Shown: positions 16,867 to 33,524 of the stretch, in pieces
Numbering within the stretch: the first letter of the stretch is position 1
Layout: each line of letters begins with the position of its first letter
NCBI GenBank assembly: GCA_035456525.1
Contig: DATICZ010000026.1
Location: forward strand, 1 to 47,961
Reading direction: 5' to 3'
Source: Gemmatimonadales bacterium
GTDB lineage: Bacteria; Gemmatimonadota; Gemmatimonadetes; Gemmatimonadales; GWC2-71-9
Length of the DNA stretch: 47,961 nt
Translations under genes and position numbers: made by a program
The notes under the pieces: generated by a model
Told to the model about the DNA's origin: nothing
The model's database searches: none
Seen by the model: the letters and a program-made list of their open reading frames with translations, nothing else

Positions 16867-16874
16867 GGATCCTC

Positions 16875-16901
16875 CTTGTCTCCCAGGGAGGCGGAGACAA
16901 G
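16875..16901 (-). promoter_or_regulatory. 9-bp perfect stem-loop abutting the SD of the 2-TM gene
   Basis: CTTGTCTCC (16875-16883) pairs with GGAGACAAG (16893-16901) around a 9-nt loop. On the minus-strand RNA the 3' arm runs directly into AAGGAGGATCC-ATG. Confidence 0.4.
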
Positions 16902-19017: not shown

Positions 19018-19027
19018 AGAAAACGGC

Positions 19028-19099
19028 GCGTGGGATGTGAAGAGGTAGAATCGCGGAAGGTGACGGCCCTGTCCACGTCCCACCGCCCACATCCCACGC
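19028..19099 (+). promoter_or_regulatory. 12-bp perfect inverted repeat (48-nt spacer) with duplicated GTAGAAT, between the phosphatase gene and the coiled-coil/ABC-2 genes
   Basis: GCGTGGGATGTG (19028-19039) pairs with CACATCCCACGC (19088-19099). GTAGAAT occurs after each arm (about 19045 and about 19104). It could be a terminator-like structure or an operator. No U-tract. Confidence 0.3.
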
Positions 19100-19147
19100 C
19101 TCCGTAGAATATGCTACACGCGCCCCGGGCAGGCAAAAGCTATCTTT

Positions 19148-19522
19148 TTGGCCATGGCCGATCCAAAGCTCACCCCCCTCCAGGCCGAACGGGCCCAGCA
19201 GATCCAGGAGTTCCAGAAGAGCCTCGCCCGTGTCAAGAAGCTCGTCAGCGAGCTCGAGTCCAGCCGCGCCGCCCGGCCCCAGGTGTTGCAGGATCTCGGC
19301 AGTCAGATCGCGCGCGAGCTCTCGCGCCTCCGGGCACGGGCCGTGGGCGCGAGCATCGGGACGGTGGCCGACCTGGCCGGGCAACTCTCGGTCGCGGCCA
19401 ACCGCTCGTCGGGACTCCTCATGAAGCTCCGGACGCTGAACGACGGGGTGGCGAGCCTCACCTTTCAGCTCGACCGCGCGTTGACCGCCGCCACGACGCC
19501 CGAGCCCAACCGCCCGGAGTGA
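19148..19522 (+). CDS. hypothetical coiled-coil protein
   Basis: 124 aa with normal composition and heptad-like Leu/Gln/Glu/Arg pattern (LQAERAQQIQEFQKSLARVKKLVSELESS). Its stop overlaps the GTG of the downstream ABC ATPase (GTGA). Confidence 0.55.
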   Translation: MAMADPKLTPLQAERAQQIQEFQKSLARVKKLVSELESSRAARPQVLQDLGSQIARELSRLRARAVGASIGTVADLAGQLSVAANRSSGLLMKLRTLNDGVASLTFQLDRALTAATTPEPNRPE

Positions 19523-20472
19523 CGGCTCCCGCGGCACAAGGGCCGGCGATTCGCTGTGCCGGCCTCGTGAAACGTTACGGCGACGTCACGGCCGTGGCGG
19601 GTCTCGATCTCACGGTGGCAGCCGGGGAGTGCTTCGGCCTGCTCGGTCCCAACGGTGCCGGCAAGACCACGACCGTAGAAATCCTCGAGGGCCTCACCCT
19701 GGCCGATGCCGGCCTGGTGGAGGTCCTCGGGGCTTCCTGGAGCGGGGGGTCGGCCGACCGGAGCCTGCGCGAGCGGCTGGGGATTCAGCTCCAGGAGACC
19801 AAGCTGCCCGAGAAGCTCTCCGTGGAGGAGACGATCCGGTTGTTCGCCAGCTTCTACTCCCGTGCGCATACGGTGGAGGAGGTACTGGCGCTGGTGGGGT
19901 TGGGCGAGAAGCGGAACGCCTGGTACAGCAAGCTCTCGGGCGGCCAGAAACAGCGGCTCGCGGTGGCGTGCGCGCTGGTCAACCGGCCGGAGCTGCTGTT
20001 CCTCGACGAGCCGACCACGGGTCTCGATCCGCAGTCGCGGCGCCAGCTGTGGGATGTCGTGGCGACGTTCCGCGCCGATGGGCATACCGTGGTGTTGACG
20101 ACGCACTACATGGAGGAAGCGGAGCGGCTGTGCGACCGCGTGGCGATCATGGATCACGGCCGGGTCATCGCCCTGGGCACGCCCCGCGAGCTGATCGCGG
20201 GACTCGGCGCCGAGCATGTGGTGGAGTTCACGCTGGCGGGAGGCGAGGCGGGGGCGTTGGACGGCGAGCTGCGTGTACTGCCGGGCGTGCGCGCCGTGCG
20301 ATCCACCGACGGCGTCGTGTCGCTCACGGTCGCGGAGCTGCACCATACTCTCCCCGCGCTGATGGCGACGCTGGAGCGGAAGGGCCTCTCCCTGGCGTCG
20401 CTCACCACGCATCACGCCACGCTGGAGGACGTCTTCGTGTCCCTCACGGGGCGTCGCATTCGCGATGACTGA
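19519..20472 (+). CDS. ABC-2-type exporter ATP-binding protein
   Basis: Residue 137 (GTG) of ORF 19111..20472. GPNGAGKTT, LSGGQKQRLAVACAL, LLFLDEPTTGLD and LTTHYMEEA. Confidence 0.9.
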   Translation: MTAPAAQGPAIRCAGLVKRYGDVTAVAGLDLTVAAGECFGLLGPNGAGKTTTVEILEGLTLADAGLVEVLGASWSGGSADRSLRERLGIQLQETKLPEKLSVEETIRLFASFYSRAHTVEEVLALVGLGEKRNAWYSKLSGGQKQRLAVACALVNRPELLFLDEPTTGLDPQSRRQLWDVVATFRADGHTVVLTTHYMEEAERLCDRVAIMDHGRVIALGTPRELIAGLGAEHVVEFTLAGGEAGALDGELRVLPGVRAVRSTDGVVSLTVAELHHTLPALMATLERKGLSLASLTTHHATLEDVFVSLTGRRIRDD

Positions 20473-21496
20473 GCGCCCGCTGGCCCAGCTCACCCTCGCC
20501 TGGATGCGGGGCTTCTACCGGGAGCCCGAAGCGCTCTTCTGGGTGTTCGGATTCCCGATCGTGCTCGCGTTCGCGCTCGGCATCGCCTTCAAGAACCGCG
20601 GCCCGGGCGAGCTGCGCGTCGGCGTGGCGCGCGGGGCGGGGGACAGTGCCGCGGCGAGCGTCCTCGAGACCGCGCCCGGTCTCGCCGCCGTCGTGCTGGA
20701 CAGCGCGGCGGCCCGGGCGGCGTTGCGCACCGGCCGGGTCGCGCTCGTCGTAGTGCCCGGCGAGCCGGTGGTGTACCGCTACGATTCGACGCGGACCGAG
20801 AGCCGGCTCGCGCGCCTCGAGGTGGACGAGGCGCTGCAGCGCCAGCGCGGGCGCGCCGACCCCGTCCTGGTGCGCGACGATCGCACCACCGAGCCAGGGT
20901 CGCGCTACATCGATTTTCTGATCCCGGGCTTGCTCGGCATGAATCTGATGGGCAGCGGCCTGTGGGGCGTGGGATTCACGGTCGTGCAGGCGCGGACCAA
21001 GGGATTGTTGAAGCGCTTCCTCGCCACCCCGATGCGCAAGGGTGAGTACCTGCTGTCCTACATGCTGTCGCGTCTCGTTTTTCTGGTGATCGAGGTGGCG
21101 GCCCTGATCGGATTCGGCTGGCTGGTATTCGACGTCGGCGTGCGGGGGTCGGTCGCCGTATTGGGCCTGGTGACGCTGATCGGCGCGTTTTCGTTCGCCG
21201 GGCTGGGACTGCTGGTCGCCAGCCGGGCCAAGACGGTCGAGGCGGTGTCGGGTCTCATGAACCTGGTGATGCTGCCGATGTGGATCCTCTCGGGGACGTT
21301 CTTCTCCTATGCCCGGTTTCCCGAAGCGCTGCAGCCGTTCGTGAAGGCATTGCCGCTCACCGGGTTGAACGACGCTCTGCGAGGGGTGATGATCGACGGA
21401 TCGTCCCTGGCGGGCATCGCGGCACCGGTCGCGGTGGTCGCCGGGTGGGGAGCGCTGAGCTTCATCGTCGCGGTGAAGATCTTCCGCTGGCGCTAG
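20465..21496 (+). CDS. ABC-2-type transporter permease
   Basis: 343 aa. One N-terminal TM, an extracytoplasmic loop, then 5 TM segments (YadH/NatB-like layout). It shares an 8-nt overlap with the ATPase gene. Confidence 0.85.
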   Translation: MTERPLAQLTLAWMRGFYREPEALFWVFGFPIVLAFALGIAFKNRGPGELRVGVARGAGDSAAASVLETAPGLAAVVLDSAAARAALRTGRVALVVVPGEPVVYRYDSTRTESRLARLEVDEALQRQRGRADPVLVRDDRTTEPGSRYIDFLIPGLLGMNLMGSGLWGVGFTVVQARTKGLLKRFLATPMRKGEYLLSYMLSRLVFLVIEVAALIGFGWLVFDVGVRGSVAVLGLVTLIGAFSFAGLGLLVASRAKTVEAVSGLMNLVMLPMWILSGTFFSYARFPEALQPFVKALPLTGLNDALRGVMIDGSSLAGIAAPVAVVAGWGALSFIVAVKIFRWR

Positions 21497-21553: not shown

Positions 21554-21976
21554 ATGCCCGATTCCATCACGCTGGCGGACTACTACTACACGATGGTTCC
21601 CGACAAGCCCGGCGAGGGCGTACGCGTGTTGAACGTGCTGCGGGACGCCGGGGTCAATCTCCTGGCGTACTCGGGATTCCCGGCCGCGCGGCGCACCCAG
21701 ATCGACTTCGTTCCGGAGAACGCGCCGGCGTTTCTGGCCGCGGCCAAGGCGGCGAAGATCAAGCTCACCGGTCCCAAGAAGGTATTCCTGATCAACGGCG
21801 AAGATCGGCCGGGCGCGGTGGCGGGGCTCTACGAGAAACTCGCCGCGGCGAAGATCAACGTCACGGCGACTGACGCGGTGTGCGCAGGAATGGGGCGTTA
21901 CGGCGCGATCCTGTGGGTGAAGCCGCGAGACGTGAAGAAGGCGGCGCAGGTGCTGGGGGTCGCTCAGTCCGGCTGA
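21554..21976 (+). CDS. tandem ACT-domain protein
   Basis: 140 aa. Two approximately 65-aa units each begin with a beta-strand plus DxPG loop (YYTMVPDKPGEGVRVL; VFLINGEDRPGAVAGL). AGGAGG lies upstream of the ATG. Confidence 0.7.
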   Translation: MPDSITLADYYYTMVPDKPGEGVRVLNVLRDAGVNLLAYSGFPAARRTQIDFVPENAPAFLAAAKAAKIKLTGPKKVFLINGEDRPGAVAGLYEKLAAAKINVTATDAVCAGMGRYGAILWVKPRDVKKAAQVLGVAQSG

Positions 21977-24900
21977 GCGCCGACCAGTCGATGTCGTTGC
22001 GAACGCCGCTCCACACTTCGAGCGGCCCGACGAGCATCCGGTTCCCGACGGAGTTGCCCTCCAGGACGATCCAGTAGCGCTCCGTCGGAGGCATGCCTTC
22101 GTGCGTGATGGCCAGCGGCTTTCCGTCCACGGCGATGCCACACCGGCCGTCCGGGAAGAGCTGGACCACGAGGGAGTACCACTTTTCCAGGTTCACCCGG
22201 GTGGGAAGTGGCACCGCACGACGGTCGAAGTATGTCCAGGGCCGGGTGAACACGCCGTCACCAGGAGCGTACTGAAAACCGCATTCCCGCGCCTCCAATC
22301 CTGCCGTCGGCAGATTGCCGGTCCGGTGATCCCAGCGCACCAGTCCAGCCGAGTCGATGTTCGTCGTGAAGGCGATGTGCACGTTCTGCTGTCGCGGCCC
22401 GACCACCGGGGTGGACAGCTGCACGGCGATGCCGAGCCCGTGTGCCACCGGGAAGCGGCGGCGGGCGTACGCACCGCTCATGTACCACCCGTCGCCGTGG
22501 TTCCAGAAGGCGGGCGTTCCACCCGGTCCGACCGTGGTCGCGGGCCGTGGGTCGCCGAACGGCACCCATTGCGATTGCAGCGGGCCCGCCCACTCTTCCT
22601 TCAGTAGGACCGCGGATGGAGGTGCCGGCCCGATCACGAGGTTGACTGCGGCCTCCCGCCAGCCGCCGGCCGAGGCGCGCACGGTGACGGTTCCTGGACG
22701 CCGTGTGTACACCAAACCGCTCGGGTGGGCCACTGTCGCGAGTGTCGTATCATCGGAGCGCCAGGACAGCGCTTCCAGCGGAACGGGGGCGCCGGTCGGG
22801 TCAAATCCTCGAGCGACCAACTGGTACTCCGACCCGACCGCCACCGTATCGGAGCCGGCCGGGATCTCGAGGCGGGCCAGATAGCGTGGCCTCGCACCTG
22901 TGGGCAGCCAGCGCAACGTGTAGCGGCTGCCCGCATCGGGTCCGAACAGCACGCGTCGCGCCAGATCCGGCCGCTCGGACGGATACACGTACCAGTCGGC
23001 GCGGGCGAGACCTGCCCGCGTGCACCAGCACGCTTCCCACCGGCCGTCGGGGCTGAAGGACCGCGACCCGTCCCAGACCCCGTCGACGATGACCGTTCCG
23101 CCTGTCCTCAGGCCGAGGCGGACGACGCCTGAGGTACCGGAAGTGTCGATCGACAGGAGGAGCTGATCGGCGTCGTACCATCCCAGCAGGTTGTATGGTC
23201 CCCACACGTGGCAACTCGGCGTCCCGCCGCTGATCGTGAGGATGCAGATGCGCTGGGTCCCGTGACCCTCTTCGAGCGACTGATGACTGTAGGCCACGCG
23301 GGTCCCGTCCGGACTCCAGTAGGGGTTCCAGTCCCCCGGCTCCCCGTGGGTCAGCTCGCTGACTGCGCGCGTCGCCACATCGAGTACAGACAGGCGGGGA
23401 TAGCGATAGGGATTGCCGCCCGTGGAGCTGAAGACCAGCCGGCGACCATCCGGCGACCAGGACGGTGCGGCATCATCGCCCGGTGAGTACGTGAGGCGCC
23501 GCACCGTGCCATCCGGTCGCGTCAGGAACAGGTCGATGTCCCCCGAGTCGCCGCTCATGTCGGCGAACGCCCAGGTGAGACCATCGGGACTGGGGACCCA
23601 CGAAGCGTTGTAGTGTCGGCCGGCCCCGACCAAAGTCCGGTAGGGGCTTCCCAGCCCTCCGACGTCCAGCGGGGGGGGAGCGCCTGTTTCCCAGTCGTCC
23701 CGCCGCAACGCGACGGTGCGTGCCTCGAGCGAATCGCTCCCGGTCCGGATGACCACGAGGGTGATGTCGGGTAGCGGTGAGGCTGGCCGCAGCAGCCACG
23801 CCGTCACGCCTGCGCCGACCGCGATGACACCCAACGCCGTCGCCGCGATGCGTCGCCCGGTCACCAGGCCGAGTCGTACGTACGCCGGCAGAGAGCGCAC
23901 CAGCTGTGAGACTCGCGGAGGAGTGGCGGTCTCGCCGAGCAGATCCACAGCGACCGCCCGGGCCGGGCGCCGCTCCGCGCGGCGCCGCTGTAGCAGCAGG
24001 CGGCGCCGGAAGACGCGGGTCAACTGCTCCTCTTCTCCTGCCGCCGCGAGGTGGCGTCCCGCCCGCTGCAGGATTCCCGGATCGTCCCTGCCGGTCGCGG
24101 CAAGGAGGCGGCCGAGGGTGGCGTTGGCCGCCCGCCGCGCACCCGGTGTGGCGACCTCCAGGACGCGGGCGGCGATTTCGTCATGCGCCGGCTGCCACTC
24201 GCCGCCGTCGCGAGCCACGAGCCCACGCACATCGAGCGCGAGCAGGTCGGCCTGCACCGCCTCGAGGTCCCGGCCCGCCGCTCGAGCCAACACGTCGGTC
24301 GGGAGCGGCGTTCCCGCGGTCGCAAGCAGCGCCAGCAGCCAGGATTCACGACGGGAGAGCGCTGCGAGGCGGCGCCGCAACGGCCAGCCCTGCGCCAGCA
24401 TGGCGTCGAGCTCGGTAGGCTCGCGACACGACCACGCGCCGTCAACGAGTGTCAAGGTGCCCTGTTCCAGCAGCAGGTTGAGCGTTTCCAGCACGAGCAG
24501 CGGCGTGCCCGCGGTGGTCGTGTAGAGCGCGCCGGCGAATCGAGTGGCCCAAGGTTCGGCCGGCAGTCGCCCCAGACTCGCGAGCAGCGCACCGACTCCA
24601 TCCGCCGTCAGCGGCTCCAGTGCGAGCGGCTCCACCGAGACGCGACCCACTGCGCCGGAGATACCGGGTCGGGCGGCCGTGACGACGAGCACCGCGTGCT
24701 TCAAGGCCAGGGAAAGCAGGTGGTTCAGGACCTGACGCGACGGCTCGTCGATCCAGTGCACGTCGTCGATGAGGAGCGCCACCGGGTGCTCCTCGGCGAC
24801 CGCTCGGAGCAGTTCGGCCAGCGCGATCGTCCGGCGTCGCAGCGCCTCGAGGTCGGACGCGCGGTCGGGTGCGGCACCGTAGTAAGACGACAGGGTCGGG

Positions 24901-26018
24901 TTCAGTGCCACGAGCGCCGCCGCCGAGTCGGGAGAGACAGCGGCGGCGCCGGGAAGGTGCGCCAGCGCGAGTCCCACCTCGGACACGAGGGCGTAGGGCA
25001 CCGATCGCTCTCCCGGGTTGGCGCGGGCGACGACGACGCGACTCCCCATGGTGCGCAGCCGGGCGTGTACGTCGGCCAACAGCCGGGTCTTGCCGAGCCC
25101 GGCGGCGCCGGTGATGTGGACGTGCCGCCCCAGGCCGCCGCGCGCCGCACCCCAGGCGGCGAGGATGGCGGCGAATTCGCGCTCGCGTCCGATCAGCTCC
25201 GTGCTGAGCGACTGCTTCGTGGAGACGGCCGGGTTCTCAGGCGCCGCCTGATGCACCAGGGCGAGCAGGCCGACGGTCGCGGGCTCCGGCGGGCGATCGG
25301 CACGTGTGAGGACCTGCTCGAGGCGATGCGCCGCGAGCTCCGCGCCGACGCGGTCGTTGGCGGCGAGCAGTGTTTCGAGCTCGAGCCGCCAGCCGCTCTC
25401 GTCGTCGGGATCGTTCTCGCGCAGCCGGGCCGCGAGGTCCTTGGCCTTGCGCAACCGGCCTCTCGTCATCCAGTCGCGCACGACCGTCTCGCCCGCCCGG
25501 CGGAACATCCGCCGCAGCCGGTAGCGCTCGAGATCGGCCCACTGCTCGAAATCCGCACCTCCCGGGGCCGCGAAGCCGGGGAGGAAGTCGCCGCCGTAAA
25601 GGTCGAGTGCACGCTCGAATTCGACCTGCTCGATCGCCTCGAGGAACGCATCGCGATCCGAGTCTCCGGTGGCGCACAGCGTCACCGTGTCGTCGGTGGC
25701 CGTGATGGCGTGCTCTCCGAGACGCTGGCGCAGGAGCCAGACGGCCTGACGAACGGAGTGACGCGCGGCCTCGGTGTCCTGGTCGGCCCAGAGCAGATCC
25801 ATGAGGTGCTCGCGGCTGGCCGAGTGGCCGGGGGAGCAGGCGAGGTAGACGTAGAGGCCGAGCGGTTTGCTGGAGGACAGCAGCTCGTGGCGCTCGCCCG
25901 ATTCGGTGACGCGCGCGAGGGAGGCTCGTCCGAGAGTAGTGAGGACGAGTCGGCCGGAGGGATTCAGCTGAAGTGCCTGCCCGTTCGACATTTGACGCCC
26001 GATAGACGCTCGGTTCAC
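21861..26018 (-). CDS. membrane-spanning SARP/AfsR-like regulator: wHTH + BTAD + P-loop NTPase (AAA_16/STAND-like) + 1 TM + periplasmic PD40 beta-propeller + Big_2 + LamG/ConA-like domain
   Basis: 1385 aa. Residues about 25-100 are OmpR-type wHTH (REHLMDLLWADQDTEAARHSVRQAVWLLRQRLG). BTAD follows (ALDLYGGDFLPGF...FEQWADLERYRLRR). Walker A is ITGAAGLGKTRLL and Walker B is VALLIDDVHWIDEPS. The TM helix is at about 724-743 (IAATALGVIAVGAGVTAWLL). PD40-type repeats follow (SWSPDGRRLVFSS, YWSPDGTRVAYSH, SFSPDGRW). A Big_2-like stretch is TVAVGSEYQLVARGFDPTGAPVP...GTVTVRASAGG. The alternative start Met10 is at 25991. Confidence 0.85.
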   Translation of the reverse strand: MNRASIGRQMSNGQALQLNPSGRLVLTTLGRASLARVTESGERHELLSSSKPLGLYVYLACSPGHSASREHLMDLLWADQDTEAARHSVRQAVWLLRQRLGEHAITATDDTVTLCATGDSDRDAFLEAIEQVEFERALDLYGGDFLPGFAAPGGADFEQWADLERYRLRRMFRRAGETVVRDWMTRGRLRKAKDLAARLRENDPDDESGWRLELETLLAANDRVGAELAAHRLEQVLTRADRPPEPATVGLLALVHQAAPENPAVSTKQSLSTELIGREREFAAILAAWGAARGGLGRHVHITGAAGLGKTRLLADVHARLRTMGSRVVVARANPGERSVPYALVSEVGLALAHLPGAAAVSPDSAAALVALNPTLSSYYGAAPDRASDLEALRRRTIALAELLRAVAEEHPVALLIDDVHWIDEPSRQVLNHLLSLALKHAVLVVTAARPGISGAVGRVSVEPLALEPLTADGVGALLASLGRLPAEPWATRFAGALYTTTAGTPLLVLETLNLLLEQGTLTLVDGAWSCREPTELDAMLAQGWPLRRRLAALSRRESWLLALLATAGTPLPTDVLARAAGRDLEAVQADLLALDVRGLVARDGGEWQPAHDEIAARVLEVATPGARRAANATLGRLLAATGRDDPGILQRAGRHLAAAGEEEQLTRVFRRRLLLQRRRAERRPARAVAVDLLGETATPPRVSQLVRSLPAYVRLGLVTGRRIAATALGVIAVGAGVTAWLLRPASPLPDITLVVIRTGSDSLEARTVALRRDDWETGAPPPLDVGGLGSPYRTLVGAGRHYNASWVPSPDGLTWAFADMSGDSGDIDLFLTRPDGTVRRLTYSPGDDAAPSWSPDGRRLVFSSTGGNPYRYPRLSVLDVATRAVSELTHGEPGDWNPYWSPDGTRVAYSHQSLEEGHGTQRICILTISGGTPSCHVWGPYNLLGWYDADQLLLSIDTSGTSGVVRLGLRTGGTVIVDGVWDGSRSFSPDGRWEACWCTRAGLARADWYVYPSERPDLARRVLFGPDAGSRYTLRWLPTGARPRYLARLEIPAGSDTVAVGSEYQLVARGFDPTGAPVPLEALSWRSDDTTLATVAHPSGLVYTRRPGTVTVRASAGGWREAAVNLVIGPAPPSAVLLKEEWAGPLQSQWVPFGDPRPATTVGPGGTPAFWNHGDGWYMSGAYARRRFPVAHGLGIAVQLSTPVVGPRQQNVHIAFTTNIDSAGLVRWDHRTGNLPTAGLEARECGFQYAPGDGVFTRPWTYFDRRAVPLPTRVNLEKWYSLVVQLFPDGRCGIAVDGKPLAITHEGMPPTERYWIVLEGNSVGNRMLVGPLEVWSGVRNDIDWSALSRTERPPAPAPPSSRLAASPTGSRRNAPFLRTPRQSP

Positions 26019-26039
26019 AGCCTGTATGCGACCACTGAC

Positions 26040-26058
26040 GTGACCGCCCCTCGGTCAC
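26040..26058. promoter_or_regulatory. 7-bp palindrome in the 5' leader of the regulator gene
   Basis: GTGACCG-ccccT-CGGTCAC lies 22-40 nt upstream of the ATG at 26018. It could be an operator or an RNA hairpin. Confidence 0.25.
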
Positions 26059-26260
26059 CGGTCGTCCGTCGGGATGTGCTTCGCTCCTGCTAGGGAGAAG
26101 CTACGGCGGATGGGCGGGTCAGCAAGGCGCCGTGTGCGTGGCCGGGGGGTTGGGCGATCGAGCCATTTCGGCTTGCCGCCCGAGCGGCTTCATAGGAATT
26201 CCATGGCCGGCTGATAGGGAGTTCTGGGAGATCGCCGGGCCCTCTGCGCGTTCGCTGACG

Positions 26261-28006
26261 TCAACTTACCCTGAGCAGCGCCAGCATCTTCTTCAACACC
26301 CCCCCGGTGGCCAGATCCAATGCCTCCCGGAACGCCCCCGCGTTGGGGAACCGCTGCGCCGGATCGCTGCGCACCGCGCGCCGCAGTACCTCCTCGATCT
26401 CGCGCGACACATCCGGGCGTGCCTCTCGCAGCGCCGGCACGTTGTCCGTGGTCTGCATCGCCAGGATGGCCTCGGGTGTCGGTCCCTCGAACGGCGCTCG
26501 GCCCAGCAGGGCGAAATAGGCGACGGCCCCGAGGGAGTAGAGGTCGGTGCGCGGATCCACGCGCTCCCCCAGCAGCTGCTCTGGCGCGGCGAACTGCGGC
26601 GTGCCGCTGCGCGACGTCGCCCCGCCGAAGCGGTCGCCGCGCAACGCCAGCGCCAGCCCGAAATCGGTGATCCGCAACAGGCCGGTCGGCTCGAGCAGCA
26701 TGTTCTCGGGCTTGATGTCCCGGTGGACGAGGCCCAGGGCGTGCGCGTGCTCGAGCGCGCTCAACGCCTCGAACAGGACCCGGGTCGTCTTCTGGAGCGG
26801 GAACGGTCCATCCTTCTTCACGATCTGGGCGAGGTTCGCTCCCGGCACCAGCTCCATGACGTACCACTGCAGGCCGGCGCGACTCTGAATGTCGTAGATG
26901 CTCACGATGTTGGGATGGCGCAGCCGGGCGGCGAGCATGGCCTCGCGCCGGAACCGCTCCATCACGCCGGGATCGGCCGTCAGCTGGGGGTGCAACACCT
27001 TGATGGCCACTTCCCGCTCGAGCCCCAGGTCGCGCACCCGGTACACGCGGCCGAACCCGCCCGCGCCGATCTCCTCGAGCAGCTCGTAATCGTCGCCGAA
27101 CGCCCGGCGCAGGCGGCGCTCGAACCCCTTCTCGCTCGTGGCCGGGGCCGCCGCCGGCTCGTGGAAGACGCCGGCATCGGACACGAAGTCCTCGAGCATC
27201 TCCGTGGCCGTGAAGTAGCGCTCCCGCGGGGTGGGCCGCAGCGCTCGCAGTACCACGCGCTCCACGGCCGACGGCACCGCGGGACGCAAGGATCGCGGCG
27301 GCACCGGCGGCGTCTCCGGCTCCTTGCCCGTGAGGGCGTAGTACACGATCGCCGCGACGGCGTATACGTCGCTCGCCGGCTCGCCGGCCTCGCGCGCGCA
27401 CACCTCGGGCGCCGAGAACGGCGTCACATGGGCGGGATCGTCCGCGGGAACGTGCGAGAGGCACCAGTTCGAGTAGCGCAGGTCGGTGACGACTCCGCGC
27501 CCCGAGAGCTCGAGGATCAGGGTGGTCGGCACGATGCGGCGGATGATGATGCCGCGCGCGTGCGCGTGCTCGAGCGCGCCCAGCAGGTCGCGCACCAGCG
27601 ACATGACGCTCGGAATCGGCCTGGGGCCCCGCCGCATCGCCTCGGCGAGACTCTCGCCGTCGATCCAGTTGGTGGTGCGGTAGGCGAACGGTCCGACCTC
27701 GCCCGCGGCGTAGACGTGGCGCACCGCCGGGTGGTTGAGCGCCGCCAGGGTCTCGTTCTCGCGCAGGAACCAGGCGCGCCCGGGCGAGTCGGGGATGAGG
27801 TGGACGCGCAGCGCCACGCTGCGCTTCAGCCGGCGGTCCCACGCCCGGTACAACGCGCGCTCGCGCGACAGCTCGACCAGGTGGTCGAGCCGAAAATCGG
27901 GCTCGAGCGCCGGCGTGATGCCGCTGAGAAGATCGACCGGCGGAGTGTCGGAGGACGTCAACGGGATCCGCCCTCGATCGGTAGAGGGACCGTTACCACT
28001 CCCCAC
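26261..28006 (-). CDS. soluble tandem pseudokinase + Hanks-type Ser/Thr protein kinase
   Basis: 581 aa with no TM segment. The C-terminal half (about aa 307-563) is canonical: GAGGFGRVY, VAIK, HRDIKPEN, DFG, APE. The N-terminal half (about aa 38-274) has kinase-like spacing but degenerate motifs: no Gly loop, VALR for VAIK, IRRIVPTT for HRDxKPxN, DLR for DFG. SAPE and DVYAVA are retained. The alternative TTG start at 27961 overlaps the upstream stop (TTGA). Confidence 0.85.
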   Translation of the reverse strand: MGSGNGPSTDRGRIPLTSSDTPPVDLLSGITPALEPDFRLDHLVELSRERALYRAWDRRLKRSVALRVHLIPDSPGRAWFLRENETLAALNHPAVRHVYAAGEVGPFAYRTTNWIDGESLAEAMRRGPRPIPSVMSLVRDLLGALEHAHARGIIIRRIVPTTLILELSGRGVVTDLRYSNWCLSHVPADDPAHVTPFSAPEVCAREAGEPASDVYAVAAIVYYALTGKEPETPPVPPRSLRPAVPSAVERVVLRALRPTPRERYFTATEMLEDFVSDAGVFHEPAAAPATSEKGFERRLRRAFGDDYELLEEIGAGGFGRVYRVRDLGLEREVAIKVLHPQLTADPGVMERFRREAMLAARLRHPNIVSIYDIQSRAGLQWYVMELVPGANLAQIVKKDGPFPLQKTTRVLFEALSALEHAHALGLVHRDIKPENMLLEPTGLLRITDFGLALALRGDRFGGATSRSGTPQFAAPEQLLGERVDPRTDLYSLGAVAYFALLGRAPFEGPTPEAILAMQTTDNVPALREARPDVSREIEEVLRRAVRSDPAQRFPNAGAFREALDLATGGVLKKMLALLRVS

Positions 28007-29025
28007 CCGCTCATCGCGGTGCGGGCGTAGCGCACATCCCGCAACCGCACGACCGGGGAAGGGGTCGAGTCCACCTCACCTGCCAGGAACCGGGCGAAAC
28101 CTTCCATTGCCCGCCCCGCTGCGGTTTGTCGTAACGCCGCCTGCACGTGCACGTCGTCCAGGTGCCGGGGGACGGCCCAGCCGCGCCCGGCCACGCTGTC
28201 GCGAGAGGCGTAGACCGCCTCCCACCGAAACGGACTGCCGACGCTGGTCAGCGCGGCCCACGTCGCGCCCGGGCCAAATCGCGCGACCGCTTCGCGGTGC
28301 ACCCTGGCTTTCGCGGGTCCGCTGGCCACCGCCTGCATCGCCGCGTACCCGGCGAGCACGGCGAGCGACCACGCGGCGGCCGTCCGCCGTCCCGCCACGC
28401 CGAACCAGTGACGCACCCAGCCCACCACCCCGAGTGCGACGAGCGCGACGCTCACCGCGCGCAGCCACGGGGCCGGCACGTTCGGGCGCCAGATGAACTC
28501 CGCCCACAGCACGAAGCCCGCGGCGAGCAGCACCGGGGTGAGGGCCATCCAGTGGCGCGCGGCTCCCCAGGCAAGACCGACCAGTGGGAGGATCCAGAAC
28601 AGGGGATCCACGATCGCCACCCAGTCGGCGTAGTACCACCGGCCGCTCCATGGCAGCCAGGGGCGCAGTCCGTAGGACCCCTGCCAATCCATATAGACGT
28701 GACTCCAGACCGTCAGCGTGACCAGTGCGCCCAGCGTGAGGAGCGAGACCGCTCCGATGCGCCGCCGCAACAGGATGAAGAGTCCCCACAGCACACCGGT
28801 GATCGCCGCCGACTCGACGGCGGCTCCGATGAAGGAGTGGGTGATCCCGCGATGGAGCGTGTAGTACCCGAGCGATCCCCGAAAGGGGCGGAACCCGAGG
28901 AGCGGCTCGGTCCAGTCGGGCGCGTTGGCCGCGACGGCGCCGATCCAGCCGGCGGCCGGTACCTTGCGGCCCGCCACGGCGCGGCCCAGAGCGGCTCCCA
29001 CCACGGCATGGGCGAGGTTGTCCAC
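27958..29025 (-). CDS. membrane-bound metal-dependent hydrolase, DUF457/YdjM family, with C-terminal soluble extension
   Basis: Residue 287 (GTG) of ORF 27958..29883. NLAHAVVGAALG, HRGITHSF, several TM segments, then an approximately 150-aa C-terminal region. The upstream part of the ORF is Arg/Pro-rich shadow. Confidence 0.75.
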   Translation of the reverse strand: MDNLAHAVVGAALGRAVAGRKVPAAGWIGAVAANAPDWTEPLLGFRPFRGSLGYYTLHRGITHSFIGAAVESAAITGVLWGLFILLRRRIGAVSLLTLGALVTLTVWSHVYMDWQGSYGLRPWLPWSGRWYYADWVAIVDPLFWILPLVGLAWGAARHWMALTPVLLAAGFVLWAEFIWRPNVPAPWLRAVSVALVALGVVGWVRHWFGVAGRRTAAAWSLAVLAGYAAMQAVASGPAKARVHREAVARFGPGATWAALTSVGSPFRWEAVYASRDSVAGRGWAVPRHLDDVHVQAALRQTAAGRAMEGFARFLAGEVDSTPSPVVRLRDVRYARTAMSGWGVVTVPLPIEGGSR

Positions 29026-29057
29026 GGGCTGGGAAGATAGCCCCGTCCGCCCTAGCC

Positions 29058-29327
29058 GTGGCGGGGGAGGCGTGTAGGTTAGGCGGCGTGTCAACTTCGG
29101 TTCCCCATACCCGTCGCGAGCGGCGTCGCACACCAGAGCGCCGCGCCCTGATGGACCGGCGCTCCGGAGTTGATCGGCGCGGCCGCGCCGAGCGTCGCCA
29201 GGCGAATCTCGCGGTTGCCGAGGAGCGCCGCGGCGGTGTGGACCGCCGTTCGGGCGTGGATCGGCGCGATGCCGCTCGCCGAATTCCGGGGGAACGCCGG
29301 GAAGAGCCACCCGATCTGCCTTCCTGA
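29058..29327 (+). CDS. Arg-rich micro-protein with duplicated DRRSGVDRR motif (start codon uncertain: GTG 29058, GTG about 29088 or ATG 29151)
   Basis: 89-aa ORF in the divergent spacer. It stops 19 nt before the FHA-protease ATG. Two 30-nt copies sit 87 nt (29 codons) apart, and all five differences fall on the wobble phase (see finding). No clear SD. Confidence 0.4.
   Translation: MAGEACRLGGVSTSVPHTRRERRRTPERRALMDRRSGVDRRGRAERRQANLAVAEERRGGVDRRSGVDRRDAARRIPGERREEPPDLPS
29152..29268 (+). repeat. imperfect 30-nt direct repeat pair (29152-29181 and 29239-29268), 25/30 identical
   Basis: TGGACCGGCGCTCCGGAGTTGATCGGCGCG versus TGGACCGCCGTTCGGGCGTGGATCGGCGCG. The period is 87 nt. Confidence 0.8.
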
Positions 29328-29346
29328 GCGCTGCGCTGTAGACGCA

Positions 29347-31335
29347 ATGCCGTATCTCAAGCTCCAGCTGATGTCGACCGGCCGCATCCTCGAACTGCAC
29401 GACACCGTCGTGCGGCTGGGTCGCGATGCGGCCGCGACAATCCCCTTCATGGGAGACGATGCCCGAGTTGTCTCCACCCGGCACGCCGAGGTACGCCCGG
29501 CGGGGGAGGGGTGGCAGCTGGTGGACCTTGGGAGTCGCAACGGGACCTTCTTGAACGGCCGCCGCATCCAGGGTGAGGCCCCGCTCACCGCCGGAGACGA
29601 GGTGCGCCTGGGGGAAACGGGGCCGCGTGTCAGCGTGCTCGCCGTGAGTCAGGCGCCGCTTCCCGAAGGGACGCTTCCCGAGTTCCAGGCGCCCCAGGTC
29701 GCCCCGCCACCCGAACGGCGCGGGCCGCTGCCGCCGGAGGCCCGTCCCTACGGGGTGACCCTGATCGCGACCGCGACCGGAAAGCGCTTCGAGGCACACG
29801 GCACGCGCATCCGGATCGGCCGCGGCAAGGAGTGCGAGGTCCGCGCGGTCGAGGGCAGCGAGGGAATCGTCTCGCGGGTGCATGCCGAGCTGACCGTGGG
29901 CCCCGGCGGCGGCCTGTCACTGCGGGACGTCGGGAGCAAGAACGGGACGTACCTGAACGGCGACCGCATCGCCGATCCCATGCCGGTGCGGCTGGGCGAC
30001 CGCATTACGCTCGGACCCGGCGGACCCGTCCTGATCGTCGAAGGGATCGGCACCGGGCCCATGAAGGCGGCGGTGCGTCCCCCGGTGGTGCAGGGGATGG
30101 GCCACAACACGGTCATGGGGCTGATCAACAGCGCCCTGGCGCAGGCGCGTGAGGAAAAACGCCGCGGGGGCCGAGGCTCGACCGCCTTCTTCAAGGCGGT
30201 GGCCGAAGAGGTCGGCAAGGACTCCCGGCGCAAATTCCGCTGGCTGACCACGTTGGTCGCGGTGCTCGTGCTGCTGCTCGGCGGAGCCGTGTATGGCGTG
30301 TATTGGCTGCTGTCACAGCAGGTTGAGCAGACTGAGGTCGAACGGCGCAGCGCGGAGGACTCGGCGCGGGCGAGCGCCGAGCGCCTGCGCCACGAGCTGG
30401 AAGCCGCGCGGGCGGCGGCGGCGCCGGCGGCCACGGTGGACAGCCTGCGGGCCCAGCTCGAGTCGGCGCAGGTGCGGACGTCCGAGCTCCGCGCGGCGCT
30501 CGAGCGGGCGCAGGGTGCGCTGGGCCAGCAGTTGGCGCAGGGGGAATCCCAGCGCCTCGCGTCGCAACGCGAGCTCGAGCGTCTGCGCGACCAGCTGAAT
30601 CAGGCCCAACGGACTGCTCCCTCTTCGGGGACGATTGACAGCCTGCGCCGGCAGATGGCCGCGACCGAGGCGCAGGCCGCCAGTCTGGACGCCCGGATGC
30701 GGGCGATTCGTGGCACCGACTTCGCGGCAATCGCGCAGCAGAACCAGGCGGCGGTCGGGCTCATCACGACGCGGTTCGGCAAGAACATCTACAACGGGAC
30801 CGGGTTCGTCATCTCCCCTGATGGATACATGCTCACCAACTGGCACGTCGTAACCGACAGCGGCTACCCCCGGCCGGACACGATGTGGGTGACCATGGCA
30901 GACCAGTCGACCTCCCGCCTGGCCGACGTCATCGCCAGCTCCCAGGAGCGCGACATCGCCCTCATCAGAATGCGCGGCTACCAGGGGCAGTACCTGGCCA
31001 GCGTCGATTGGGGCGGCACCAAGTCGCGACAGGGCGAGCCGGCCGCCCTGATCGGGTATCCGGCCGGATCGGGCTTCGCCCACCTGCGTTCGGCAGTCGT
31101 TCGCACGTCCATGACGGCGGGGATCATCTCCCGCGTGACCGAGGACGTGATCCAGTTCGACGGCATGACGATTGGGGGGTCCTCGGGCAGCCCAGTCTTC
31201 AACGCCAACGGCGAGGTGATCTCGATTCACCGTGCGGGCCTACCCCAGGCGCCCGGGTTTGCGCTGTCGGTGCCGATGCACCATGCCGTCTCGCTCTTGC
31301 CGCCGGAGGTGAAGCAACGGCTCAGTATCCCTTAG
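29347..31335 (+). CDS. FHA-FHA-TM-coiled-coil-trypsin-like (S1) serine protease
   Basis: Met60 of ORF 29170..31335, 662 aa. FHA1 reads VVRLGRD...STRHAEV...LGSRNGTFLNG. FHA2 reads IRIGRGKECEV...VSRVHAEL...VGSKNGTYLNG. The TM helix is at about 299-322 (WLTTLVAVLVLLLGGAVYGVYWLL). An Ala/Gln/Arg-rich coiled coil spans about 325-455. The protease triad candidates are TNWHVV (H500), RDIALIR (D536) and GGSSGSPVF (S613). Confidence 0.85.
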   Translation: MPYLKLQLMSTGRILELHDTVVRLGRDAAATIPFMGDDARVVSTRHAEVRPAGEGWQLVDLGSRNGTFLNGRRIQGEAPLTAGDEVRLGETGPRVSVLAVSQAPLPEGTLPEFQAPQVAPPPERRGPLPPEARPYGVTLIATATGKRFEAHGTRIRIGRGKECEVRAVEGSEGIVSRVHAELTVGPGGGLSLRDVGSKNGTYLNGDRIADPMPVRLGDRITLGPGGPVLIVEGIGTGPMKAAVRPPVVQGMGHNTVMGLINSALAQAREEKRRGGRGSTAFFKAVAEEVGKDSRRKFRWLTTLVAVLVLLLGGAVYGVYWLLSQQVEQTEVERRSAEDSARASAERLRHELEAARAAAAPAATVDSLRAQLESAQVRTSELRAALERAQGALGQQLAQGESQRLASQRELERLRDQLNQAQRTAPSSGTIDSLRRQMAATEAQAASLDARMRAIRGTDFAAIAQQNQAAVGLITTRFGKNIYNGTGFVISPDGYMLTNWHVVTDSGYPRPDTMWVTMADQSTSRLADVIASSQERDIALIRMRGYQGQYLASVDWGGTKSRQGEPAALIGYPAGSGFAHLRSAVVRTSMTAGIISRVTEDVIQFDGMTIGGSSGSPVFNANGEVISIHRAGLPQAPGFALSVPMHHAVSLLPPEVKQRLSIP

Positions 31336-31560
31336 GGCTAGGTGTTGCAGAGTCGGCCAGTTACCTGCATTCCGCCATAATCGCTAAAATCAGCAATAGC
31401 ATCATACCCCGTCTCGTGTGAGGCTTGACCCGGCCCGCTGTGCAGTTCCCACCGCGGCATGCAAGTCATTTTGGTATTGTTGTTTAGGTCCAAGGCTTGT
31501 ATTATGGGCCGTCTGCAAGTGTCAAAAAATAAGACGGTTTGTGAGGAAACGCCTACAAGA

Positions 31561-31575
31561 GGCACGGCGCTTGCT
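31561..31575 (+). promoter_or_regulatory. sigma-54 (-24/-12) promoter candidate
   Basis: aGGCACGgcgcTTGCTt matches TGGCACG-N4-TTGCW at every conserved position except the first T, with GG-N10-GC spacing. It sits in an AT-rich 297-nt spacer, 58 nt upstream of the subunit ATG (31633). AAAGGGAGAG lies 8 nt before that ATG. Confidence 0.5.
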
Positions 31576-31632
31576 TCGGTCCAGCGTCGAAGTCCGGGAA
31601 GTCTCCGCACCCTCAAAGGGAGAGCACTCACG

Positions 31633-32133
31633 ATGAAGCACGGGCTGATGCAACCGTCCTTGGCCTTGGTGGCGCTGCTGGCTGGGTTGGCGCCGCCGGC
31701 CACGGCGCAGGCGAACTCAGGGAGCATCACGGCGACGGCCGTGGTGCTGCAACCGATCAGCGTGACCGGTGCGGTGAACCTGTCGTTCGGCAACGTGTTC
31801 CCGGGTGTCCCTGCGACCGTCGCGCTGGCCGACGCCGGCGCGGGCCGCTTCGATGTCGCCGGTCAGGCGAACGCGCCGGTGACGATGTCGTTCACCGCGC
31901 TGCCGGGGAACTTGACCTTCGGCGCCAACAACATGCCAGTGGTATTCACCGCTGGCTTCAACACGACAAACTCGGCCGCCGGGGCAACGCCGTTCACGCC
32001 GGCGAGCGGGGCGGCTACCAGCCTGTCGGGTACGGGCGCCCTGTTCGTCTTCATGGGCGGCACGGTGACGCCGGCGGTGAACCAGGCGGCGGGCACGTAC
32101 AACGGGACCGTCACCCTGCAGGTGACGTACTGA
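31633..32133 (+). CDS. secreted DUF4402-like (spore-coat-protein-U-like) fimbrial subunit candidate
   Basis: Met59 of ORF 31459..32133, 166 aa. Signal peptide MKHGLMQPSLALVALLAGLAPPATAQA. ITATAVVLQPISVTGAVNLSFGNVFPG and the C-terminal GTYNGTVTLQVTY match my memory of the DUF4402 pattern. Confidence 0.7.
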   Translation: MKHGLMQPSLALVALLAGLAPPATAQANSGSITATAVVLQPISVTGAVNLSFGNVFPGVPATVALADAGAGRFDVAGQANAPVTMSFTALPGNLTFGANNMPVVFTAGFNTTNSAAGATPFTPASGAATSLSGTGALFVFMGGTVTPAVNQAAGTYNGTVTLQVTY

Positions 32134-32154
32134 GCTAGCCGGATTCACGGCCGC

Positions 32155-32697
32155 ATGGTGAGCCGTATCGGCTCGGCGCTGGCAGGGGTCGTTTCGGGCC
32201 CCTGCCGGCGCGTGCGTTGGAGGGGCAGTGTGCCGGCTCTGCTCGCCGTGGCGGCTCTCCCTGCGCCGGCGGCCTCCGTACACGGTCAGGGGCAGCCGGT
32301 TCGGGTCAACGGCGTGCGGTCGGTGAGCTTCGGGACGGTGTTTCCGGGGATCCCCAAATCGGTGCCGCGGACGGATGCCCTGAACAGCGGGCGGTTTGAT
32401 ATCCGCGCCGCAGCCGGGTCTCAACTTCAGTTGAGTTTCGCGCTCCCCTCGGCGATGACCGGGCCAGGGGGAGCGACGATGCCGTTGAGCTTCGGCGGCG
32501 GCGACGCTGGTTACTCCGCAACGCAATCCGTGGCGAGCCAGGTCGGGTTCGATCCGCGCGTCCCCTTTCTGGCGACCATGGGTGGCCCCCCGGGCAGGGC
32601 GGCGGTGTTTCTTGGCGGCACTGTCACGCCACTCGCATCACAGCCCGCCGGGAGCTACACGGGGACGATCACCCTCACCGTCGTGTATTTCCCGTGA
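32155..32697 (+). CDS. second DUF4402-like secreted subunit (start uncertain: 32155, 32212 or 32230)
   Basis: VRSVSFGTVFPGIP...GRFDIRAAAGSQLQLSF...GSYTGTITLTVVYFP parallels the upstream paralog. Signal peptide VPALLAVAALPAPAASVHG. Confidence 0.65.
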   Translation: MVSRIGSALAGVVSGPCRRVRWRGSVPALLAVAALPAPAASVHGQGQPVRVNGVRSVSFGTVFPGIPKSVPRTDALNSGRFDIRAAAGSQLQLSFALPSAMTGPGGATMPLSFGGGDAGYSATQSVASQVGFDPRVPFLATMGGPPGRAAVFLGGTVTPLASQPAGSYTGTITLTVVYFP

Positions 32698-33524
32698 CTA
32701 AAGCCGCGTGGCTCGCCCTGGCGGCGCTGTGCACGACCTCCCGACTGCCGGCTCAGGGAGTCATGGTCGCCCCCAAGGCGGTGTTCATGTCGTCGGGCAG
32801 CGGCAGCGGATCGGTCACCCTGCTCAATCCCGGGACCGATCCGGTCGAAGTGGTGGTCTCCGTCTTCTACGGCTATACGGCAACCGATTCGGCCGGTCAG
32901 CTGAGGCTGATCACGATCGATCACCCCGATTCCACGCAACCTTCGGCGGCAGCCTGGCTCCAGGCATTCCCGCGCCGCCTGACACTGGGGCCGCGGGATC
33001 AACAGGTCGTGCGGTTGCTCGCCACACCGCCGGCGGGTCTTCCCGATGGTGAGTACTGGGCTCGGCTGGCCTTCACCGCCAAAGCGGGCGAGCTGCCGGT
33101 CGCGGGAGTGAGCGACAGCGCCACCATCAAGGTCGGCCTTACGCTGCAGATCCAGCAGGTGATCGGTCTCCACTACCGCAACGGGCAGGTGCGAACGGGG
33201 ATCGCGCTGTCCGGACTGGAGGCGGTGCGGCAGGGGGATTCGGTGATCGTGCACGCGCGCCTCGAGCGACAGGGGAACGCCGCCTATCTCGGCACCGTGC
33301 ACGCCGCCATCGTCGGCTCGAACGGGAAGCCTGCAGGCGAGCTCCGCGTCCCGATCACGGTGTTCTTCGCAAATCGACCCCGTTGGGCGGTGAGCATCGC
33401 CGGTGCACCTGCCGACCAGTATCGGCTGCGACTCGACATCACCCCCCAGCGGGACGACCTGGAGCGGCAGGTTCTGCTGCGGAGCCCGGCGGTGAGTGAT
33501 TCGGTGGCGGTGCAGAGCCCGTGA
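32694..33524 (+). CDS. PapD-like periplasmic fimbrial chaperone candidate
   Basis: Signal peptide MTKAAWLALAALCTTSRLPAQG. VMVAPKAVFMSSGSGSGSVTLLNPGTDPVEVVV and AFPRRLTLGPRDQQVVRL resemble PapD N-domain strands. It shares 4-nt overlaps with both neighbours. Confidence 0.55.
   Translation: MTKAAWLALAALCTTSRLPAQGVMVAPKAVFMSSGSGSGSVTLLNPGTDPVEVVVSVFYGYTATDSAGQLRLITIDHPDSTQPSAAAWLQAFPRRLTLGPRDQQVVRLLATPPAGLPDGEYWARLAFTAKAGELPVAGVSDSATIKVGLTLQIQQVIGLHYRNGQVRTGIALSGLEAVRQGDSVIVHARLERQGNAAYLGTVHAAIVGSNGKPAGELRVPITVFFANRPRWAVSIAGAPADQYRLRLDITPQRDDLERQVLLRSPAVSDSVAVQSP

Follow-up and report, generated by a model that had tools for sequence, protein, structure and literature searches.

Which of the genes that face each other in the middle of a 47,961-nt contig from a Gemmatimonadales bacterium (GenBank assembly GCA_035456525.1, contig DATICZ010000026.1; hereafter the window, with a G+C content of about 70%) form one signaling system, and in which direction would such a system pass information across the inner membrane? 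Bacterial signaling by Hanks-type kinases and forkhead-associated (FHA) domains controls cell-wall synthesis, secretion systems, and metabolism, and we know of no description of a direct link between it and regulated extracytoplasmic proteolysis. For HtrA-type proteases, the accepted view is that regulation acts on the periplasmic side, by way of their PDZ domains. A preliminary description of this stretch had joined four proteins into one circuit: a membrane-spanning SARP-like regulator (21861-26018, minus strand), a soluble tandem pseudokinase-kinase (26261-28006, minus strand), a YdjM/DUF457 membrane hydrolase (27958-29025, minus strand), and, facing these three across a spacer of 321 nt (29026-29346), a serine protease with two FHA domains and a transmembrane (TM) helix (29347-31335, plus strand). 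All four open reading frames (ORFs) and the spacer lie where that description had placed them, and the circuit holds in part. As judged from conserved sequence and gene order, the real unit appears to be a phosphothreonine (pThr) signaling pair, made up of the tandem kinase and the FHA-protease and conserved across Gemmatimonadota.

We fetched 86 loci around homologues of the FHA-protease (6 metagenome look-ups and 80 GTDB species representatives) and searched them with the proteins of the window. Co-occurrence was counted in the 53 species-representative loci that carry at least 3.5 kb of upstream DNA, 39 of which belong to a closer clade whose FHA-proteases are 55-96% identical to that of the window and 14 to a distant clade at 40-43% identity. 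The closest public locus, L007 (metagenome-assembled genome [MAG] SMAG_U9681), encodes an FHA-protease that is 96% identical to the window's. The tandem kinase is the divergent neighbor of the FHA-protease in 51 of the 53 loci (37/39 in the closer clade and 14/14 in the distant one). Other neighbors differ by clade: the closer clade has ABC-2 genes, YdjM, and a small ORF of (D/E)RR repeats, and the distant clade has CN-hydrolase, AcrB, alcohol dehydrogenase, and SpoU genes. In five distant-clade loci the alcohol dehydrogenase gene is inserted between kinase and FHA-protease, and the association is kept. The pair is the sole gene content common to both clades. YdjM was found in 30 of the 39 closer-clade loci and in none of the 14 distant ones; the regulator was found in no locus of either clade (0/39 and 0/14), nor anywhere among all 86 FHA-protease-anchored loci. 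Of the four proteins and the arginine-rich micro-ORF whose co-occurrence in related genomes the preliminary description had proposed as a check, the kinase and FHA-protease thus do travel as a pair, YdjM and the micro-ORF do so in the closer clade only, and the regulator does not.

The domain order first proposed for the facing gene is well supported. Its 662-aa product, whose reading frame is open from 29170, has two FHA domains (Pfam, 1.2e-32; FHA1 at 29347-29646 and FHA2 at 29749-30054), a TM helix (30244-30300), long helices that form a stalk (30304-30741), and a Trypsin_2 domain (2.2e-24; protease at 30754-31332), all on the plus strand. TM helices in the window proteins were predicted from hydropathy; here there is one, at residues 300-318, and its positive side is N-terminal, which places the N terminus inside and the C terminus outside. 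The pThr-contact residues expected of FHA domains are invariant in both copies (GR25-26, S43..H46, and N65G66 in FHA1; GR158-159, S176..H179, and N199G200 in FHA2), and by alignment the FHA domains appear to keep every pThr-binding residue. Beyond the membrane, a periplasmic helical stalk of about 145 residues is followed by an HtrA-like S1 protease domain with an invariant H500/D536/S613 triad, as in the chymotrypsin fold. In an AlphaFold2 (AF2) model of the full protein, both FHA domains are confident and helices run at residues 293-356, 361-423, and 427-465 (span 293-465). Sequence matches in the PDB for the protease part are HtrA (1.7e-13), MucD, DegP, and PepD, at 1e-13 to 1e-10, and the FHA part is nearest to GarA. 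Neither Pfam nor NCBIfam finds a PDZ domain, the protein ends about 25 residues past the protease domain, and every NCBIfam model for HtrA or DegS falls well short of its cut-off. The MarP model (NF033740) gives 66.8 bits against a cut-off of 250, and the single TM helix after two FHA domains does not fit a MarP protein, which has an N-terminal membrane anchor of four helices. A search returned more than 500 homologues; the 120 best span the full length with 63-100% identity, and those that carry a name are from Gemmatimonadales. The 100% identical database entry for the FHA-protease (P0001) is 699 aa long, 37 aa too long, and overlaps the microprotein gene described below in another frame, a gene call that conflicts with the homologue alignments.

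About 20 residues before the TM helix lies a motif of the form RRSFGGKG-x-T-x-F-hydrophobic, which reads RRGGRGSTAFF here and includes Thr279 (RRGGRGSTAFFKA, 30157-30195, plus strand; Thr279 codon at 30181-30183). The juxtamembrane Thr and the hydrophobic residue at +3 are kept in both double-FHA clades, even at 40% identity, and in the representatives of 50%-identity clusters. A hydrophobic +3 residue fits the preference of FHA domains. Thr279 is the best candidate for an FHA site, and the motif may be at once a site for the kinase and a ligand for the FHA domains.

The kinase likewise proved to be what had been proposed, a soluble protein with two kinase-fold stretches (Pfam Pkinase, 1.9e-60) and no predicted TM helix, and no membrane or sensor domain was found in it. 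Pfam and motif analysis place a pseudokinase domain at about 27137-27889 and an active Hanks kinase domain at about 26348-27088 (minus strand). As also described before, the TTG at 27961 overlaps the YdjM stop codon (TGA, 27960-27958) as TTGA and is in frame with the kinase. Since alignment with homologues begins only near residue 20 of the longer form, a start at 27961 (26261-27961, 566 aa) is likelier than the alternative GTG at 28006 (581 aa); the gene calls of relatives run to 565-572 aa. In an alignment that sets the window protein beside the translations of 21 relatives from related loci, the C-terminal domain keeps GAGGFG, VAIK, RFRREA, HRDIKPEN, DFG, and GTPQFAAPE across all 22 proteins, the motifs of a Hanks-type kinase. 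The N-terminal domain has no G-loop and carries VALRV (K to R), IRRIVP (HRD to IRR), and TDLR (DFG to DLR), as a pseudokinase would. These substitutions are kept in both clades, which implies that the pseudokinase domain may have a selected non-catalytic role. Among solved structures the closest relative is PknB (7e-53), with PknA and StkP also nearest. The word "tandem" is absent from a recent atlas of bacterial Ser/Thr kinases and from a review of bacterial pseudokinases, and we found the arrangement described nowhere.

Because its kinase domain scores against the PD-T4-6, mad6, and PglW models, the gene might be taken for the center of an anti-phage defense system of the PD-T4-6, MADS, or BREX-PglW type. 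These scores, however, stay below cut-off in NCBIfam (MAD6, 246 bits against 460; PglW, 111 against 990), and the PADLOC matches cover the generic kinase domain only. The other proteins have no specific PADLOC match, there are no partner defense genes, and the locus is vertically conserved and syntenic across the phylum rather than a variable island. On these grounds we rejected the defense reading, to which we give next to no credence.

A second line of evidence comes from outside the double-FHA family. A profile search of 1.8 billion cluster representatives returned 345 clusters at E <= 1e-30, of which about 12 are full-length double-FHA proteins and many more are single-FHA proteins of 430-490 aa that also contain a TM helix, a helical region, and Trypsin_2. 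Metagenome contigs, which are records without lineage, were scanned with a 12-sequence alignment of this single-FHA type. Of the full-length loci, L096-L100, L102, and L105 have a PP2C gene immediately upstream of the single-FHA protease; in L096, L098, L100, and L102 the PP2C gene is in turn preceded by one for a receptor-type kinase (kinase-TM-ectodomain); and in L096, L098, and L100 a Zn-ribbon/double-FHA protein is encoded upstream of the receptor kinase. The operon order is therefore Zn-ribbon/FHA protein, receptor Ser/Thr protein kinase (STPK), PP2C, and, as the last gene, the single-FHA-TM-protease, with gene ends that overlap or nearly touch and with a C-terminal TM helix on the PP2C. 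Because the gene order differs from that of the double-FHA loci, these operons are a second, separate tie of the protease family to Hanks-kinase signaling. Together with the adjacency of the pair in 51 of 53 loci across two clades, the STPK/PP2C/FHA operons support the earlier idea that the output of the kinase is read by the FHA pair on the membrane protease. The operon in L100 also adjoins an Amidase_3 (N-acetylmuramoyl-L-alanine amidase) gene, a neighbor that hints at a cell-wall context for the single-FHA operon.

What the pair would do can be framed from these parts. We lean toward the view that Thr phosphorylation in the cytoplasm, read by the FHA pair, gates proteolysis in the periplasm. 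The kinase would autophosphorylate and would phosphorylate Thr sites for the FHA pair; the best candidate site would be the juxtamembrane Thr279, and the alternative would be a phosphorylated pseudokinase domain or tail, as in MviN-FhaA. Engagement of pThr by FHA, either in trans between protomers or as a bridge to the kinase, would alter the oligomeric state of the stalk, and the periplasmic protease domains would thereby be turned on or off. The working form of HtrA-type proteases is a trimer, and regulated, oligomer-dependent activation is the rule in their family. The relay would run inside-out, from cytoplasmic phosphorylation to envelope proteolysis, a direction favored because the receptor kinase of the single-FHA operons has its own ectodomain and the protease there looks like an output. 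A more elaborate version is possible, though we think it less likely than not: a JAK-like kinase, a juxtamembrane pThr, and stalk oligomerization that switches on a PDZ-less HtrA-type protease, with the microprotein as kinase modulator and the same effector in receptor-kinase/PP2C operons of other phyla, would together make up a new class of inside-out device.

The same proteins could also signal in the opposite direction, with FHA-TM-protease as the membrane or sensor arm: events at the periplasmic protease or stalk would alter FHA availability and recruit or activate the soluble kinase, and other targets would then be phosphorylated. This would account for a kinase without a TM helix or sensor domain of its own, for the pseudokinase-kinase order, which matches the logic of regulated tandem kinases, for the FHA-protease being the only consistently linked membrane protein, and for the maintenance of some family members without a catalytic triad. 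In the single-FHA operons, however, the kinase is itself a receptor with an ectodomain and the protease resembles an output, and in the clade of the window the triad is invariant. We therefore think outside-in signaling unlikely, and we judge no more favorably its specific form, in which substrate or peptide binding or envelope damage would be the trigger and the FHA-protease would resemble a receptor with a non-covalently attached JAK-type JH2-JH1 kinase.

Several observations weigh against gating of the protease by cytoplasmic phosphorylation. The AF2 model gives the protease domain low confidence (pLDDT 59), because the alignment is shallow. Two cluster representatives, P0255 and P0266, have lost catalytic residues (TNRQ for TNRH; SMTGSP for GSSGSP) and retain the FHA domains and the juxtamembrane motif; from these motifs they are probably pseudoproteases, and the protease domain may therefore also serve as a non-catalytic binding module. 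No PP2C phosphatase that could act as an off-switch was found in the window or in any Gemmatimonadales locus. Finally, L048 and L059 have the protease without a kinase within 10 kb, and all double-FHA loci come from Gemmatimonadota; with the relatives all in one phylum, part of the linkage could be inherited synteny. Carried further, this would mean that kinase and protease are not functionally coupled at all and have separate partners, and bacterial Hanks kinases are often pleiotropic. Such an absence of coupling seems to us quite improbable, since the pair persists while all other neighbors are replaced, survives insertion between its two genes, and is echoed elsewhere, where, in an unrelated gene order, the protease family is once more found with kinase, PP2C, and FHA genes. 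To our knowledge, FHA domains have no ligand other than pThr.

Parts of such a relay have precedents. In Mycobacterium tuberculosis, the reading of the phosphorylated pseudokinase MviN by FhaA controls an envelope process, and PknB writes the Thr (PMC12599244). The pair described here is like PknB-MviN-FhaA in having an active Hanks kinase, a pseudokinase-associated Thr, and an FHA reader. It differs in that a single soluble protein carries both the pseudokinase and the active kinase, the FHA reader continues through a membrane helix into a periplasmic protease, the neighborhood contains no PP2C gene, and MviN- or FhaA-type domains are absent. The single-FHA relatives share with the PknA/PknB-PstP-FhaA/FhaB cluster the logic of receptor kinase, TM-anchored PP2C, and FHA gene. 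In the threonine-phosphorylation pathway of type VI secretion (T6SS; PpkA/PppA/Fha1, TssL-Fha), as outlined in PMC3953482, a kinase-written pThr read by FHA switches an envelope-spanning machine. The window, however, contains no T6SS genes by Pfam and no PP2C gene, its kinase is not membrane-bound, and the FHA reader is itself the transmembrane effector, so the locus does not belong to that pathway.

Like DegS and MarP, the protease would be tethered to the inner membrane and face the periplasm, and within the HtrA family (DegS-RseA, MucD, PepD, MarP-RipA) its protease domain is closest to HtrA, DegP, MucD, and PepD. The regulatory module that defines HtrA and DegS, the PDZ domain, is missing from it, however, and its regulation would come instead from cytoplasmic FHA domains. 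We know of no characterized S1 protease for which FHA-based regulation has been reported. The JAK proteins (JH2-JH1) offer an analogy only: in both cases a soluble pseudokinase-kinase is matched with a single-pass membrane protein that has a phospho-dependent docking module, but homology ends at the kinase fold, FHA-pThr rather than FERM-SH2 would do the docking, and the ectodomain is a protease. An FHA-FHA-Trypsin architecture appears once in a survey from 2008, as NP_811686.1 of Bacteroides thetaiotaomicron, with a guessed role in "metabolism and signalling" (PMC2605481). That protein has the same domain order but is uncharacterized, and the survey gave no kinase linkage, TM/stalk topology, or conservation for it. 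Literature on FHA together with trypsin-like or serine protease, kinase, and PP2C gave no characterized example, in agreement with the earlier statement that no characterized system has such a composition. The parts are known (Hanks kinase, FHA, S1C-type protease); the combination and its implied logic are uncharacterized.

The spacer between YdjM and the FHA-protease holds a further gene. In an alignment of the spacer from 12 loci, the first and second codon positions of GAN-CGN-CGN units are invariant, a period-3 pattern of conservation. The plus-strand frame has no stops and 73% amino acid identity over 10 loci, and every closer-clade locus with upstream DNA contains such an ORF. The "Arg-rich micro-ORF" of the preliminary description is a real conserved gene; the mirror frame on the other strand has stops, and we rejected an ORF on that strand. 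The gene lies at 29088-29327 (plus strand), ends 20 nt before the ATG of the FHA-protease, and encodes a (D/E)RR-repeat microprotein of about 79 aa (…ERRRTPERRALMDRRSGVDRRGRAERR…DRRSGVDRRDAARRIPGERREEPPDLPS). Its start is ambiguous, either the GTG at 29088 or an internal ATG, which gene callers use and which yields 58 aa. In the closer clade the position of this ORF varies (before the FHA-protease, between kinase and YdjM, or both), the copies align as two paralogue types, and the distant clade has none. A leader peptide was considered and rejected: the type-B copies, which lie between kinase and YdjM, have no co-directional gene downstream, and the ORF is therefore a gene in its own right. 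The microprotein has no Pfam or PADLOC match, and its database matches are only 10 proteins, all hypothetical, all from Gemmatimonadota, and most called from the internal ATG. The protein is probably disordered and cytoplasmic, and it would serve the kinase as a modulator or a substrate.

Directly upstream of the microprotein start, a non-coding block (…CTAGCC…GGTGTAGGTTAGGCGGC, 29050-29087, plus strand) is conserved at the nucleotide level without period-3 structure. A sigma-70 consensus scan of this block found nothing, and Rfam, tRNA, and promoter/terminator scans of the spacers gave nothing useful. From its conservation, the block is a candidate promoter or 5' end of the microprotein/FHA-protease transcript. 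Within the slightly longer conserved stretch GGTGTAGGTTAGGCGGCGTG (29050-29090), a TAnnnT-like hexamer, TAGGTT, ends 7 nt before the GTG of the microprotein; as speculation, this geometry would fit a leaderless transcript.

YdjM itself (27958-29025, minus strand; 355 aa, within a longer open frame) lies upstream of the kinase and is translationally overlapped with it. The family assignment made earlier is sound: PF04307 matches residues 1-175 with 79.2 bits against a cut-off of 29 (3.4e-22), and about five to six TM helices are predicted in this polytopic membrane protein, which has a C-terminal extension of about 150 aa. "Hydrolase" is a label taken from the family annotation, and a PDB search found no solved relative. 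YdjM and the (D/E)RR microprotein are lineage-specific accessories of one clade.

The regulator, by contrast with its place in the proposed circuit, proved to be an adjacent gene outside the module. Its likely start is the ATG at 25991, where the database entry P0121 (1376 aa) begins, 9 codons later than the GTG at 26018; the entry thus conflicts with the coordinates first claimed. Along the minus strand it comprises a winged helix-turn-helix (wHTH)/BTAD-like part (about 25239-25961), AAA_16 (24684-25199), a TM helix (23793-23849; residues 724-742, positive side N-terminal), and a periplasmic part (21864-23792). The domains named in the preliminary description are partly borne out: AAA_16 (1.6e-22), PD40 (3.8e-14), one TM helix, and an Ig/Big_2-like domain (about residues 1031-1119) are present, but in this protein Pfam leaves Trans_reg_C below threshold (23.5 bits against a cut-off of 26.2) and does not report BTAD. 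Among 32 family members, Pfam finds PD40 and AAA_16, the central P-loop NTPase of SARP/AfsR-like regulators, in all 32, BTAD in 23, Trans_reg_C in 22, and Big_2 in 7. An AF2 model of residues 745-1385 (pLDDT 84.9) is all-beta, with a TolB-like propeller first (Foldseek, 8e-15) and a beta-sandwich last. Searched against the PDB, the family profile matches TolB (2.8e-29) and the Ig-like domains of LigA/LigB (about 1e-8), and neither AfsR nor EmbR at E <= 0.01. The family has at least 412 members, which align over their full length at 38-80% identity, and genomes carry several paralogues each; named homologues come from Gemmatimonadales/Gemmatimonadaceae, and the JGI annotation is SARP family. 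Nothing relevant was found in the literature on a transmembrane SARP with TolB.

Could the kinase control this regulator as well, in the fashion of AfsK-AfsR or PknH-EmbR, or could the protease cleave its periplasmic part in the fashion of ToxR or RseA? Hanks-kinase control of SARP regulators is established for AfsR/AfsK and EmbR/PknH, and of the 32 family members scanned, most have a wHTH and BTAD and all have a P-loop NTPase, as large SARPs do. In the window a Hanks kinase is the regulator's neighbor, 242 nt away, with the regulator downstream in the same orientation, and in L089 a regulator of 70% identity lies near the kinase; both families are abundant in Gemmatimonadales, where action in trans would be possible. 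Unlike AfsR and EmbR, however, this regulator spans the membrane and has a periplasmic sensor part of about 640 aa. Pfam finds no FHA domain in it. Its adjacency to the kinase is not conserved, for it is missing from all 53 informative loci. In L089 it is parted from the kinase by an opposite-strand 758-aa gene, and paralogues stand beside Big_2, LamG, or MacB genes, or nothing relevant, with neither kinase nor FHA partner. The claim that the regulator belongs to the circuit is therefore not upheld, and we rejected it as a module member on its absence from the 53 loci and on the unrelated contexts of five homologues. The full circuit, in consequence, is very improbable.

The place that the regulator occupies is itself changeable. 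Closer-clade loci normally have an ABC-2 permease gene (20465-21496, plus strand, in the window) abutting the 3' end of the kinase, and the junction between the two variably holds a cupredoxin gene, an ACT-like gene, or genes for 730-758-aa proteins, the first two even without the regulator. From this variability, the regulator is a lineage-specific occupant. The ACT-like gene of the window (21554-21976, plus strand, 140 aa; ACT score weak, 1.1e-5, below cut-off) lies convergent to the regulator, whose 3' end it overlaps by 116 nt; in L087-L090 it shows 89-94% identity, above the 70-80% of the regulator, and it also occurs in L062, which has no regulator. In L087, from the same MAG as L007, the regulator (80% identity) has divergent Big_2 and 730-aa genes on one side and ACT-like, cupredoxin, and ABC-2 genes on the other. 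L089 runs from YdjM and kinase through the opposite-strand gene to the regulator (70% identity) and then to ACT-like, cupredoxin, and ABC-2 genes. The regulator of L091 (54% identity) has no kinase within 10 kb, and more distant homologues, of lower identity, lie among LamG/CARDB, MacB, or mobile-element genes, with two paralogues 7 kb apart in one locus. No remnants of the 730/758-aa gene were found between kinase and regulator in the window. Direct co-directional adjacency of regulator and kinase is peculiar to the window, and the regulator is an independent one-component transmembrane regulator that was inserted with the ACT-like gene into a variable junction.

Genes that encode large secreted or surface-type proteins recur as divergent neighbors of regulator homologues (L087, 2900-5092; L089, 2592-4868; L091, 4233-9221; L092, 5998-7809; all minus strand). 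These encode 730-758-aa proteins without a Pfam match, Big_2/Metallophos proteins, and a LamG/CARDB protein, and they may be the regulators' targets. In L092 (1-1676, minus strand, and 18893-20017, plus strand), the same Tricorn_N/PD40 periplasmic sensor is fused to a Ser/Thr kinase beside an ECF sigma factor, and two regulator paralogues are found 7 kb apart. This suggests that the Tricorn_N/PD40 sensor is strongly expanded in the phylum and is shared there by kinases and one-component regulators.

Farther out, the window carries ordinary genes: an RND efflux operon (OEP, membrane-fusion protein, and AcrB; 11038-16900, minus strand) and a phosphodiesterase/sulfatase-like gene, a small ORF, and an ABC-2 transporter pair (17425-21496, plus strand). 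Both flanks are syntenic with the relatives L087 and L089. Directly 3' of the FHA-protease, at 31459-36205 (plus strand), four genes encode two DUF4402 proteins, a 276-aa protein without a Pfam match, and an 894-aa protein with weak CarboxypepD_reg/SdrD_B signals; the cluster looks like a surface-fiber or secretion-type cassette. Because it is present in L002-L005 and absent from L001 and L006, it is a variable insertion between the protease and a hybrid histidine kinase gene.

The regulator, then, is one of a separate, strongly expanded family of one-component sensors that should not be annotated within the circuit and that deserves its own study. The pair of tandem kinase and FHA-protease is nearly universal in a poorly studied, abundant soil phylum, and its effector family extends to other lineages, so that characterizing the pair would annotate hundreds of proteins now labeled "FHA domain-containing." If the envelope protease is indeed gated from the cytoplasm, it would be a new route by which information passes outward across the inner membrane.

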